Source of the DNA: Escherichia coli
GTDB lineage: Bacteria > Pseudomonadota > Gammaproteobacteria > Enterobacterales > Enterobacteriaceae
Direction: 5' to 3' (one strand)
DNA: 64,000 nt
NCBI RefSeq assembly: GCF_003790525.1
Contig: NZ_CP033635.1
Positions 2,095 to 55,018 of the stretch are shown piece after piece. Positions within the stretch are counted from its first letter, which is position 1; each line of letters begins with the position of its first letter. Both the position numbers and the translations under genes were made by a program. The notes under the pieces are model-generated. The model was not told where the DNA came from, made no database searches, and was given only the letters and a program-made list of their open reading frames with translations.

Positions 2095-3159
2095 ATGGTA
2101 ACGTCCTGTACTGGACATGTTTTAGATAATCAACGCGCCACCACTCGCGGAGTTTTCTCCTCCGGTAGTCATCTCGTCACTTTGCATTTTCAACCTCATC
2201 CTTTCTTTTCATGTGTTACCGACGCCGCAAACGGTGTGCGTAGCCGTTTTTCGGCATTTTATCCAAAAGCAAACTATGGCTTACAAGGAAGCCAACCCTC
2301 TGATGTTCGTGCGCATAATCGCGCTGCCAACGGCGCGTGTGATGAATACAAACAACTCAAGGTGCTCTCCATGGGAAGACAAAAAGCAGTGATCAAAGCT
2401 CGTCGCGAGGCAAAACGTGTGCTGAGACGGGATTCGCGCAGCCATAAGCAGCGTGAAGAAGAATCGGTCACCTCGCTTGTGCAGATGAGCGGCGTAGAAG
2501 CCATTGGTATGGCCCGCGACAGTCGCGATACTTCGCCCATCCTCGCGCGAAATGAAGCGCAATTGCACTATCTGAAGGCTATTGAGAGTAAGCAGCTGAT
2601 ATTCGCCACGGGCGAAGCCGGGTGCGGAAAAACCTGGATCAGCGCAGCAAAAGCGGCAGAGGCCCTGATACATAAGGATGTCGACAGGATTATCGTCACC
2701 CGTCCAGTTCTGCAAGCCGATGAAGATCTTGGCTTCTTACCTGGTGATATCGCAGAAAAGTTTGCTCCCTATTTTCGCCCGGTCTACGATGTGCTGGTTC
2801 GGCGCTTAGGGGCTTCCTTTATGCAGTACTGCCTGCGACCAGAAATAGGGAAGGTGGAAATTGCGCCGTTCGCCTATATGCGTGGACGTACCTTTGAAAA
2901 TGCAGTCGTCATTCTTGACGAGGCGCAGAATGTGACTGCCGCGCAAATGAAAATGTTTTTAACCCGCCTCGGGGAGAACGTGACGGTTATCGTCAACGGT
3001 GATATCACGCAATGCGATTTGCCTCGCGGCGTGCGCTCCGGATTAAGTGACGCGCTGGAACGTTTCGAAGAAGATGAAATGGTCGGGATCGTCCGATTCG
3101 GTAAAGAGGATTGCGTACGTTCAGCACTTTGCCAACGTACGCTACATGCATACAGTTAA
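2095..3159 (+). CDS. phoH: PhoH, phosphate-starvation-inducible ATPase (PhoH/PhoL family)
   Basis: 354-aa ORF with Walker A GEAGCGKT; internal in-frame start at 2372 (MGRQKAVIKA...) could give a shorter product. Confidence 0.9.
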   Translation: MVTSCTGHVLDNQRATTRGVFSSGSHLVTLHFQPHPFFSCVTDAANGVRSRFSAFYPKANYGLQGSQPSDVRAHNRAANGACDEYKQLKVLSMGRQKAVIKARREAKRVLRRDSRSHKQREEESVTSLVQMSGVEAIGMARDSRDTSPILARNEAQLHYLKAIESKQLIFATGEAGCGKTWISAAKAAEALIHKDVDRIIVTRPVLQADEDLGFLPGDIAEKFAPYFRPVYDVLVRRLGASFMQYCLRPEIGKVEIAPFAYMRGRTFENAVVILDEAQNVTAAQMKMFLTRLGENVTVIVNGDITQCDLPRGVRSGLSDALERFEEDEMVGIVRFGKEDCVRSALCQRTLHAYS

Positions 3160-4499: not shown

Positions 4500-4587
4500 T
4501 GGCGGTGAGGGGGGGATTCGAACCCCCGATACGTTGCCGTATACACACTTTCCAGGCGTGCTCCTTCAGCCACTCGGACACCTCACC
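4500..4587 (-). tRNA. serX: tRNA-Ser (anticodon GGA), serX-like
   Basis: reverse complement reads GGTGAGGTGTCCGAGTGGCTGAAGGAGCACGCCTGGAAAGTG...GGTTCGAATCCCCCCCTCACCGCCA with long variable arm and CCA end; A-run on + strand 4462-4469 gives terminator on - strand. Confidence 0.9.
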
Positions 4588-10131: not shown

Positions 10132-10885
10132 GATGAAACCCCGCTTTTTTTATTGATCGCACACCTGACAGCTGCCTCTAAAATAGAAGCACCAGAAGTA
10201 CTGACAGATGTTGCACTGCTGTGTGTAGTAATAAATCAGCCCTAAATGGGTAAAATATAAAACTAATGGATTACATCTGATTTCAATCTAGCCATTACAA
10301 ATCTTAAATCAAGTGTTAAACATGTAACTAAATGTAACTCGTTATATTGAAATGTTAATCTTAAGGTTTTATTAAGTTTAGAAATGATAGAAAAGTTGTA
10401 CATTTAGTTTTTATTGCACAATTTTAAAAAATCATACAAATGGTGCTAACTTGCTAATAATGCATATAAAAAATATTTCGGTGTAGTCCTTTCGTCATGT
10501 AAAACGTTCTTGTTTTTTCTCTACACCTCCTTGGACAATTTTTTACTGCAAAAAGACGAGGTTTGTCACGGCTTGTGCGCAAGACATATCGCAGCAATCA
10601 GCGACGGGCAAGAAGAATGGCTGTCTGGTGATTTTTGATTGCGAAAAACGGAGATTTAAAAGAAAACAAAATATTTTTTTGCGTAGATAACAGCGTATTT
10701 ACGTGGGTTTTAATACTTTGGTATGAACAAAAAAAGAAAAATACAACGCGCGGGTGAGTTATTAAAAATATTTCCGCAGACATACTTTCCATCGTAACGC
10801 AGCGTTAACAAAATACAGGTTGCGTTAACAACCAAGTTGAAATGATTTAATTTCTTAAATGTACGACCAGGTCCAGGGTGACAAC
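10132..10885. promoter_or_regulatory. csgD-csgB divergent intergenic regulatory region (csgDEFG and csgBAC promoters, long csgD 5' UTR)
   Basis: about 750 bp non-coding, strongly AT-rich with A/T tracts, between divergently transcribed csgD and csgB. Confidence 0.8.
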
Positions 10886-20350: not shown

Positions 20351-20450
20351 GCCTGATGCGCTACGCTTATCAGGCCTACATCGCTCCTGCAATGTATTGA
20401 TTTTGCAAGATTTTGTGGGTCGGATAAGGCGTTCACGCCACATCTGGCAA
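20351..20450. repeat. REP palindromic elements downstream of opgH
   Basis: gcctgatgcgctacgcttatcaggcctaca and ggataaggcgttcacgccacatc REP-like motifs. Confidence 0.65.
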
Positions 20451-27889: not shown

Positions 27890-28178
27890 CATGGCCCCCT
27901 AATTCGTGTTACTAGACAACGTTATTCGAGGTTCAATGCGTTTTTATCTGAAGCAACTTCAGTATACCAATAAGTAAGGGTATTCACCGAATTTTTAAAG
28001 GGGGGAACAGATAAATTTCTGCTTTTAAGATTTATATGAACAATAAAACAGCATGTCATTCATATTTTTTTAGCATATTGTGCAATTATTTTGAGGAAGT
28101 GTAGAAATTTTGTACTCACAATTCGCAAGTAAAATAAAAAAGCCGGGGCGACCCGGCAAAAACAAAAATCACTGCATA

Positions 28179-28424
28179 TTATTCGCTGACAAACCAGTCA
28201 TCGGCGCTTTCCCACGTTTCCTGGAGAATTTCGCTAATGCGCTGTTTATCTTCTTTTGTTGCGCCAATAACCGATAAATTATTCGCTGCGGCATAACGTA
28301 CCGATACGTGGCCTTCATTATCAGGAAACGCATACTGAATACGGCGGGAAAGTTCGCCAGCCAGGGCGTCAATAGCCCCAGCTGGCAATGGAGAAGTTTT
28401 CGCTATGGTGACTTCAATTCGCAT
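28179..28424 (-). CDS. dinI: DNA damage-inducible protein DinI
   Basis: 81-aa product from MRIEVTIAKTSPL; LexA box immediately upstream. Confidence 0.92.
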   Translation of the reverse strand: MRIEVTIAKTSPLPAGAIDALAGELSRRIQYAFPDNEGHVSVRYAAANNLSVIGATKEDKQRISEILQETWESADDWFVSE

Positions 28425-28445
28425 AATAGCCCCCTGTTGAATATA

Positions 28446-28461
28446 CTGGTTATTTATACAG
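28446..28461 (-). promoter_or_regulatory. LexA (SOS) box of dinI
   Basis: minus-strand reads CTGTATAAATAACCAG, matching CTG-N10-CAG. Confidence 0.8.
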
Positions 28462-28497
28462 GCAAAATAACCTAATGACAACAGGAAGCTACGATTT

Positions 28498-29544
28498 TTA
28501 TTGTTTAACGGACCAGCGTACCGTTTCCCCAGCGAGGAATGGCACCAGGGTGTCATCAGTCAGTGCGATGCTTTCAGCAACCTGTTGCTCTTCACGTACC
28601 AGTTCGATGAATGTGTCGTTGACCGGCAAGCCATAGAACTGCGGGCCGTTTACAGAACAGAATGCTTCAAAGTGCTGCAAAGCATTCATCTCTTCAAAGA
28701 CGGTAGCGTAACTGCCCAGCGCGGTTGGGGCGTTGAAACAGCCCGCGCAGCCGCAGCTGCTCTCTTTGCGATGACGTGCATGTGGCGCAGAATCCGTTCC
28801 GAGGAATACACGATTAAAACCGCTGGCGACCAGTTCACGCAATGCCTGTTGGTGGATATTGCGTTTGAGGATGGGTAGACAATACAGGTGCGGACGCACG
28901 CCACCAACCAGCATATGGTTGCGGTTAAACATCAGATGCTGCGGAGTGATGGTGGCAGCCAGCCGTTCATTTCCGTCACGGACATAGTCGGCAGCATCTT
29001 TGGTGGTGATGTGCTCAAAAACGACTTTCAGCGCAGTCAGACGCTGGCGTAGCGGTTCCATCACGCTTTCTATAAAGCGCGCTTCACGATCAAAAATGTC
29101 GATATCTGCATGTGTCACTTCACCATGCACCAGTAGCGGCATACCGATTTTTTCCATGCGCTCAAGTACCGGCATGATTGCGTCAACTGACGTAACGCCG
29201 TGGCTGGAGTTAGTGGTTGCGTTTGCCGGATAAAGTTTTGCAGCGGTGAACACGCCTTCGTTAAATCCGCGCTCCAGCTCATTAGGATCCAGCGAATCTG
29301 TTAAATAACAGGTCATCAGCGGGGTGAAATCGTGCCCGGCAGGTACGGCGTCAAGAATGCGCTGGCGATACGCCACGGCAGCCTCAACGGTGGTCACGGG
29401 CGGAGCCAGATTGGGCATTACGATAGCCCGTCCATAAATTTCGCTGGTATACGGCACGACAGTTTTTAACATGTCGCCATCGCGGAGGTGAAGGTGCCAG
29501 TCGTCTGGGCGGCGGATCTTTAATACCTGGGATGGTGCAGTCAT
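28498..29544 (-). CDS. pyrC: dihydroorotase PyrC
   Basis: 348-aa ORF; amidohydrolase motifs (DDWHLHLRD). Confidence 0.95.
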
Positions 29545-29649
29545 TAATCTCTATGCTCCGGCTGAAGGGATGTTTTTGCCGGACACAAAGGATAAGCGGA
29601 AACGTTTTCCTTTGCACGAAAAATAAAGGGCGCGAATGCGCCCTCGTGA

Positions 29650-30991: not shown

Positions 30992-31054
30992 GTGACTCCT
31001 CCATTTGGCTGTCAGTTCACTTTCAGTATGGAGGAGTCAGGGGGGAGTATCAAA

Positions 31055-47980: not shown

Positions 47981-48764
<784 letters not shown>

Positions 48765-48847
48765 AAATATATCCTTCGGCTTTGCGTGGATGATAATTAT
48801 ACAGCACATGTAACGCTAATGTCATTACAGCAAAGATGCTACCCCTG

Positions 48848-52071: not shown

Positions 52072-52432
52072 CGTAACTTACTCATTATTCTTACATTGAC
52101 GACTAAGCTGCGGGCAAAGTAACGCCTTTCCGGGTGTGAACCGATGGCCTCGTGTCTAGTCGCGTCGCCAACCTCACGGTTATCGTCAGCTCAAAGAGGC
52201 GCAGAGTGTCGGTTGCCCGTTTTTCATGCGGAAAAACAGCGCAATTATCAAAGAAACAGACTGGGTATTACTCTCCAGAAATATTTCCATCTACCGGTAA
52301 GGACTGCAACCCGCAGCCCGCTAACTGCCTGAAAGATCAATACGTCTTACGCCATTGCTGCGTGGATGATCGGTCGGGCAAAATGGGTTATTCCGTAAAA
52401 TTTCTTGTTTTAACAAGGATGGACACGGAAAC
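52072..52432 (-). promoter_or_regulatory. rne 5' untranslated leader (autoregulatory) and promoter region
   Basis: long non-coding region upstream of rne start; extent assigned from established knowledge of the roughly 360-nt rne leader, not resolved from sequence. Confidence 0.55.
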
Positions 52433-53713: not shown

Positions 53714-54298
53714 CTATCCCATCAGCGGGTTTTTCCCTTCCCGACGTAACATCTGACACAGCGCGATTAGCGGTAAACCAACCAGCGTGTTAGGATCACG
53801 CCCCTCTAAACGCTCAAACAGCGTAATGCCAAATCCTTCACTCTTAAAGCTACCCGCGCAGTGCAGAGGATGCTCCTTACGCACGTAATTATCAATCTCC
53901 GCCTCGCTCAGGTGACGGAAATGGACGTCAAAAGGCTCCACTTCTGTTTGCAGATGCCCATTCGCCGAATTAAACAACGCCAGTCCAGTATAGAAGGTGA
54001 CGATATTGCCGCTGGCTTTGCGTAATTGCAGACGGGCATTTTCTTCCGTTAACGGTTTACCGGTGATTTCGCCATCAAGAACACATACCTGGTCTGAACC
54101 AATAATTAAATGATCCGGATAACGTGACGCCAGAGATTGCGCTTTTTCTTGTGCCAGTCGAAGCACCAACTGTCGCGGTGATTCGTCGCTGCGTGGGGTT
54201 TCGTCGACCTCTGGTGCTGCACATTCAAAAGAGATTTGCAGTTTTTCCAGAAGAGCGCGACGCCAGGGCGAAGTGGAGGCTAAAATAAGTTTAGGCAT
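53714..54298 (-). CDS. yceF: Maf-like nucleotide pyrophosphatase YceF
   Basis: 194-aa product from [20 protein letters not shown] (Maf family). Confidence 0.9.
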
Positions 54299-54339
54299 AT
54301 TTTTTTCCATCAGATATAGCGTATTGATGATAGCCATTT

Positions 54340-55018
<679 letters not shown>

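Follow-up and report, generated by a model that had tools for sequence, protein, structure and literature searches.

The LexA-controlled dinI promoter in the pyrC-dinI spacer of Escherichia coli and a conserved inverted repeat around it

The LexA box in the short spacer between pyrC and dinI is almost certainly the operator of the chromosomal E. coli dinI gene, placed over a LexA-controlled sigma-70 promoter. The operator is already known, dinI is among the best-documented LexA targets, and nothing of substance speaks against this assignment. We observed the sequence of the box, how strongly it scores, where it lies over the promoter and how well it is conserved in a 64-kb stretch of E. coli DNA (64,000 nucleotides, the window in the following) and in related genomes; LexA binding and SOS induction are taken from the literature. 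The promoter is bracketed by a conserved inverted repeat, one arm of which is complementary to the Shine-Dalgarno sequence (SD) of dinI, and we regard this anti-SD/SD repeat as a modest, testable lead.

The genes and signals of the junction, in the direction of transcription, are as follows.

28498-29544, minus strand: pyrC coding sequence, dihydroorotase, 348 aa (open reading frame, annotation, Pfam Amidohydro_1)
28500-28498, minus strand: pyrC stop codon TAA (open reading frame)
28494-28506, minus strand: A-rich tract AAACAATAAAAAT spanning the pyrC stop codon, candidate UP element
28476-28481, minus strand: putative dinI -35 hexamer TTGTCA (read from the sequence)
28444-28463, minus strand: LexA (SOS) box, 20-mer GCCTGTATAAATAACCAGTA (read directly from the sequence)
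28446-28461, minus strand: LexA box, 16-bp core CTGTATAAATAACCAG (read directly from the sequence)
28453-28458, minus strand: dinI -10 hexamer TATAAA, within the LexA box (read from the sequence)
28445-28447, minus strand: predicted dinI transcription start, at the 3' edge of the LexA box (from the position of the -10 hexamer)
28430-28435, minus strand: dinI Shine-Dalgarno sequence AGGGGG
28424-28422, minus strand: dinI start codon ATG (open reading frame)
28179-28424, minus strand: dinI coding sequence, DNA damage-inducible protein I, 81 aa (open reading frame, annotation, Pfam PF06183)
28134-28157, minus strand: canonical intrinsic terminator after dinI, GCCGGGTCGCCCCGGC followed by TTTTTTATTT (terminator scan, fold)

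The pyrC-dinI spacer is 73 bp long (28425-28497), and its minus strand reads AAATCGTAGCTTCCTGTTGTCATTAGGTTATTTTGCCTGTATAAATAACCAGTATATTCAACAGGGGGCTATT, followed by the ATG. The DinI protein matches Pfam PF06183 with 102.1 bits (cut-off 24.2) over profile positions 1-63 of 63. A 501-bp segment with the box matched E. coli SMS-3-5 and further strains at 100% identity, and the locus, annotated as pyrC and dinI, was found in 5425 of 5426 complete E. coli genomes. The sequence-only reading of this DNA had placed a LexA box at 28446-28461 on the minus strand, between a pyrC stop at 28498 and a dinI start at 28424; direct reading of the sequence and the open reading frames confirmed all of these positions exactly. 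Its naming of the site as the dinI SOS operator is fully supported by the annotation, Pfam, the identity to the K-12 box, the overlap with the -10 hexamer and the literature.

The core CTGTATAAATAACCAG is a palindromic CTG-N10-CAG sequence with an A/T-rich interior, as is characteristic of gamma-proteobacterial LexA boxes. The CTGT-N9-CAG skeleton was found 7 times in the 64-kb window against 6.4 expected, which is the chance level, so the skeleton by itself is not significant. A search for the idealised 20-mer palindrome TACTGTATATATATACAGTA, with up to 3 mismatches allowed, gave no match in the window; the dinI box was missed because it differs from this palindrome at 5 positions, and a matrix was therefore needed. 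We used a symmetrised, leave-one-out LexA position weight matrix (PWM), built from 17 of the 18 E. coli boxes in Table 4 of PMC3009722, with dinI removed. On this matrix the dinI box scored 19.57 bits, within the range of the real LexA boxes (13.4-28.6 bits), and the runner-up position in the 64 kb scored 9.42 bits, so that the LexA motif scan proposed as a check on the box returned a clear match. The best score per shuffle averaged 11.2 +/- 2.4 bits over 200 dinucleotide shuffles, and first-order Markov simulations of the window reached 19.57 bits anywhere in 5 of 1000 runs. The dinI box is the sole window position scoring above the weakest real LexA box, and no other position in the window is a credible LexA site. 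The earlier description of the box as near-consensus is somewhat generous in view of the 5 mismatches to the ideal palindrome.

The TTGTCA and TATAAA hexamers are 17 bp apart, and in dinI promoter coordinates the A-rich tract covers about -46 to -59, a position occupied by an A-run or a T-run in every species (mean column information 1.04 bits). The consensus promoter scan did not call the dinI promoter, because the scan demands T at position 6 of the -10 hexamer. The start site given above for E. coli is a prediction, consistent with the transcription start mapped in Klebsiella (PMC10907235).

For the conservation scan one genome was taken per species, and 80 Enterobacteriaceae loci were returned; the figures for the box, the spacing and the column information come from a 75-sequence alignment of Enterobacteriaceae species. 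The pyrC gene is directly upstream of dinI on the same strand in 80/80 species, with the same gene order in Klebsiella. The spacer is 65-81 bp long in 76 of the 80 loci, and the other 4 carry insertions (Trabulsiella, 116-118 bp; Buttiauxella, 199-201 bp). Each of the 75 aligned species has the LexA box, with scores of 19.6-30.0 bits (median 26.7). The -10 hexamer is TATAAA in 70 of them and TATATA in 5, TTGTAA, TTGTCA or TTGCAA is conserved at the -35 position, the -35/-10 spacing is 17 bp in 75/75, and the 20-mer box ends 19 nt from the ATG in 64/75. The protein homologue search returned only Enterobacteriaceae DinI with at least 74% identity, and so gave no new gene contexts.

The window spacer is identical to that of K-12 MG1655 except for an A to G change at 28463, the first base of the 20-mer. 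The K-12 dinI box thus shares with the window locus the 16-bp core, the promoter and the flanking genes, and differs from it by the A at this first position. The G lowers the PWM score to 19.6 bits, from 21.3 for the K-12 box ACCTGTATAAATAACCAGTA, and the window allele ties for the lowest score among the 75 aligned sequences (median 26.7). From the lower score, dinI repression in this strain may be slightly weaker than in K-12.

The K-12 dinI LexA box is reportedly included in the lists of Lewis 1994 and Fernandez de Henestrosa 2000. It is also in the list of Courcelle 2001, and ACCTGTATAAATAACCAGTA is listed among the UV-induced LexA motifs (PMC3009722). In K-12, dinI showed 49-fold induction by AZT, 39-fold dependent on LexA cleavage, with a heterology index of 4.8 (PMC11228462). 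In Salmonella, dinI is induced 22.8-fold and its box lies as far from the ATG as here, at 19 bp (PMC8072944). In Klebsiella the dinI transcription start was mapped with dRNA-seq and primer extension and is overlapped by the LexA box, and the occupancy of dinI by LexA in ChIP drops after mitomycin C (PMC10907235). The plasmid-borne qnrD promoter carries a box whose 16-mer is identical to CTGTATAAATAACCAG; its LexA/RecA-dependent induction was shown by mutation, since mutating the CTG of the box abolished SOS induction (PMC8789287). The gene and the replicon differ from those of dinI, and the likeness is that of the 16-mer.

According to this literature, a LexA dimer would bind the CTG-N10-CAG box and cover the -10 TATAAA and the start point, so that RNA polymerase would be unable to initiate with LexA bound. 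Upon DNA damage, activated RecA leads to LexA self-cleavage and dinI is transcribed, probably into a short, monocistronic mRNA ending at the hairpin and T-run terminator at 28157-28134. The DinI protein then modulates RecA filaments. AZT reportedly also induces pyrC, together with the other de novo pyrimidine genes, in a LexA-cleavage-dependent manner although these genes have no LexA box (PMC11228462); the dinI box, to which pyrC lies upstream, cannot account for this induction.

The sequence-only reading further held that transcription of pyrC comes to its end essentially within the dinI promoter. The adjacency of the pyrC 3' end and the dinI promoter is real, but termination there is unsupported: the terminator scan detected no canonical intrinsic terminator on the minus strand of the spacer (28425-28497), and the only canonical one downstream of pyrC on this strand is that after dinI. 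Our analysis corrects the assumption of a pyrC terminator in the spacer. A hairpin can be drawn across the spacer, but it has a loop of 39 nt followed by CUAUUAUG, and differs from an intrinsic terminator with its loop of 3-8 nt and its U-run. The curated Term-seq list (Adams 2021) has no 3' end at K-12 1,121,100-1,121,699, and its sole entry nearby is an internal Rho site close to the pyrC 5' end; the list is uninformative on the pyrC 3' end, because the dinI terminator is absent from it as well. Supplementary tables of the SMRT-Cappable-seq and TERMITe papers show no pyrC or dinI rows. In Klebsiella, a Northern blot with a dinI 3' probe detected a primary transcript of about 350 nt and processing products, with no longer species (PMC10907235). 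This RNA would fit an end or a cleavage of pyrC RNA close to the spacer, although it does not locate the end, and as the only dinI RNA reported it argues against an abundant pyrC-dinI RNA.

The hairpin is formed by the inverted repeat around the promoter, which has the following parts.

28479-28492, minus strand: 5' arm GTAGCTTCCTGTTG, complementary to the dinI SD (inverted-repeat search, RNA fold)
28448-28472, minus strand: inner perfect 8-bp inverted repeat GGTTATTT/AAATAACC (inverted-repeat search; part of the minimum-energy fold)
28426-28439, minus strand: 3' arm CAACAGGGGGCTAT, containing the SD AGGGGG (inverted-repeat search)

The 5' arm is upstream of, and overlaps, the -35 hexamer. Across species the consensus of the arms is GCCCCCTGT...ACAGGGGGC, bracketing the promoter, and ACAGGGGG in the 3' arm is nearly invariant in the 80 species. 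The inner 8-bp repeat, whose 3' arm is inside the LexA box, is Escherichia-specific and not conserved in other genera. As minus-strand RNA, the 161 nt from the pyrC 3' end into dinI fold with -49.4 kcal/mol (z = -3.0), with predicted pairing of GUAGCUUCCUGUUG (28492-28479) with CAACAGGGGGCUAU (28439-28426). The repeat of 13 nt has 85% complementarity as DNA and pairs completely as RNA when U.G pairs are allowed. The Rfam scan of the window gave no family covering the pyrC-dinI spacer.

We considered three readings of this repeat. The spacer hairpin may insulate dinI from pyrC, a tentative reading that we hold to be somewhat unlikely and that would add to the operator explanation rather than replace it. 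The polymerase coming from pyrC, meeting no canonical terminator, would transcribe the spacer, and the 5' arm GUAGCUUCCUGUUG (consensus GCCCCCUGU) would pair with CAACAGGGGGCUAU and bury the dinI SD, so that no DinI would be made from such RNA; the untranslated dinI RNA might also become a Rho target. RNA started at the dinI promoter would begin downstream of the 5' arm, leaving the ribosome-binding site free. A simpler reading, which we find quite possible if still short of probable, is that the repeat has no paired function: the left arm would belong to the upstream promoter region or to the site of another DNA-binding factor, the right arm would be a strong ribosome-binding site, and their complementarity would be incidental. 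In its favour, the arms overlap two separately constrained elements, the -35 hexamer and the SD. Against it, 9-14 nt of the arm are complementary to the SD in almost every one of the 80 species, and the C-rich block at -38 to -44 fits no known sigma-70 promoter element; UP elements are A/T-rich, and we know of no G/C-rich element upstream of the -35 hexamer in sigma-70 promoters. The core of the 5' arm is conserved like the -35 hexamer itself (1.41 and 1.50 bits of column information, against 0.44 in the promoter spacer), which, together with the complete pairing of the 13-nt repeat and the fold z-score, favours the insulating hairpin. Explicit pair counting across species points the same way: 75.8% of cells pair, against 34-64% with the partner slid, and a 9-bp core is paired in about 90% of the species. 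At the three outer pairs, 30 both-side changes were counted against 19.2 +/- 3.8 in shuffled data (3/500), with many unpaired cells and a shuffle control that ignores the relatedness between species. The nine core pairs showed no both-side changes and give no covariation signal, because there is hardly any variation in them, and the spacer stem was not recovered by RNAalifold from the 75-species alignment; both results suit an incidental complementarity better. As covariation support is this weak, we treat the insulating hairpin as hypothetical. The sense and antisense folds are equally stable overall and thus do not identify the strand under selection, and many species of Escherichia, Citrobacter and Salmonella have 1-2 arm mismatches, which also counts against the insulating hairpin.

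The predicted accessibility of the SD also speaks for insulation. In partition-function folds, the median probability of an unpaired SD over 81 loci was 0.01 in the read-through RNA, 0.34 in the promoter-started RNA and 0.24 with shuffled upstream sequence, and the read-through value was below the shuffle mean in 78 of the 81 loci. In the window the predicted value for dinI read-through RNA is 0.00, and the dinI SD ranks first among 25 co-directional window junctions both in occlusion and in the length of its complement (13 nt), ahead of pyrC with 0.18 in the same calculation. However, comparable occlusion at 2 of the 24 other junctions, grxB (0.02) and msyB (0.06), leaves room for an incidental origin, and in Trabulsiella the stem persists despite a new SD further downstream. 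The eight phage dinI genes compared kept the box and the G-rich SD and have no SD-complementary arm, and a clear canonical terminator is present just upstream of the dinI promoter in Chris1 and mEp237 (a possible one in SPN3UB); this substitution, in at least the first two, fits the insulating hairpin, and the absence of the arm from promoters of otherwise shared architecture counts against a chance complementarity. In the third reading, pyrC transcripts would be ended or stabilised inside the spacer, either by its hairpin or by box-bound LexA acting as a roadblock; the pyrC 3' end would then fall within the dinI promoter or at its edge, and the two genes would be transcriptionally separate. 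We consider it unlikely. The stable fold across the spacer and the A-run before the hairpin with the weakly U-rich CUAUUAUG after it, which together resemble a poor terminator, speak for it, as does the Klebsiella Northern blot, where the ~350-nt dinI RNA and its products suggest that little read-through RNA accumulates. The pyrC to dinI read-through that insulation presupposes is hypothetical, and the same blot (PMC10907235), which mentions only the ~350-nt dinI RNA, counts against it. On the other side, the terminator scan did not call the hairpin, given its 39-nt loop, in 74 of 75 species T makes up just 1-4 of the 8 bases that follow the stem, the Term-seq list has no 3' end at the locus (nor the dinI terminator), and LexA is not known to block elongating polymerase. 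The hairpin could equally be a poor, non-canonical pyrC terminator or a 3' stabiliser, which would rescue the termination idea. Taking these possibilities as one, that the repeat is a functional RNA element which hides the dinI ribosome-binding site and may promote 3'-end formation seems to us a doubtful proposition.

Two further known systems are close, the first to the dinI promoter and the second to the hypothetical hairpin. The dinI promoters of Gifsy-1/2/3, mEp237, SPN3UB and Chris1 share with the chromosomal one a box ending 19-21 nt from the ATG, a G-rich SD and a DinI-family protein; they differ in that these phage and prophage genes are not downstream of pyrC and are without the SD-complementary arm, with the upstream terminator in Chris1 and mEp237. 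The second is the Rfam PyrC_leader (RF02372), detected directly upstream of pyrC (29545-29594, minus strand, 68.7 bits), 1 kb away from the spacer. It is a known hairpin that hides the pyrC ribosome-binding site depending on the start site used; burial is decided by the presence or absence of the 5' arm in the transcript, as it would be in the hypothetical dinI hairpin. In the PyrC leader the start sites are 2-3 nt apart and belong to one promoter, whereas at dinI the choice would be between the pyrC and dinI promoters.

The pyrC-dinI junction is compact, with promoter, operator and ribosome-binding signals within 73 bp after the pyrC stop, and this arrangement is conserved throughout the Enterobacteriaceae examined. 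If the insulating hairpin is real, DinI would be made only from LexA-controlled transcripts, and not when pyrimidine limitation raises pyrC. The junction would then illustrate in simple form how the choice of promoter can insulate the translation of an SOS gene from a metabolic neighbour, and it would be relevant to users of dinI reporters and to the deletion or engineering of pyrC.

Several spacers of other genera have been rearranged. In two Buttiauxella loci (L063, L081) about 125 bp are inserted in the dinI 5' UTR between the LexA box and the SD, with the box and both inverted-repeat arms kept on either side; we take this insertion (…GAGCTTACATAGGTAAGTGA…) to resemble an ERIC-type enterobacterial repeat. 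In the two Trabulsiella loci (L034, L035) about 45 bp are inserted between the ACAGGGGG arm and the dinI ATG; a new SD, AAGGA, is found near the ATG, and the old arm pair is kept and no longer covers the SD. Six loci of the Citrobacter freundii group (L006, L008, L009, L012, L013, L016) have a 10-bp deletion between CTG repeats, which removes the -35 TTGTCA and brings TAGCCA to 17 bp from the -10 hexamer. The outer 5' arm GTAGCC is kept in this group, and the 3' arm has become GGCTAC in four of the six (L006, L008, L009, L016).

Other features of the window were also noted. At the mdtH-grxB spacer (30992-31054, minus strand), the grxB SD GGAGGA is occluded in the modelled read-through RNA as strongly as that of dinI (probability unpaired 0.02, z = -3.9, 11-nt complement), and the occlusion of the msyB SD, after mdtG, is weaker (0.06). 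A DUF1778/GNAT-acetyltransferase gene pair at about 47981-48765, is annotated between rne and flgL in the identical sequence of SMS-3-5 and is probably a type II toxin-antitoxin module; we presume that these genes are absent from the rne-flgL position in K-12. The other Rfam or ARAGORN matches, taken at the gathering score, were the following.

2961-3154, minus strand: Ysr251 (Rfam)
4500-4587, minus strand: tRNA-Ser(GGA) (Rfam or ARAGORN)
10187-10278, minus strand: ES056 (Rfam)
20372-20414, minus strand: ES036 (CssrF) (Rfam)
52096-52432, minus strand: rne 5' UTR element (Rfam)
54292-54460, plus strand: SraB sRNA (Rfam)
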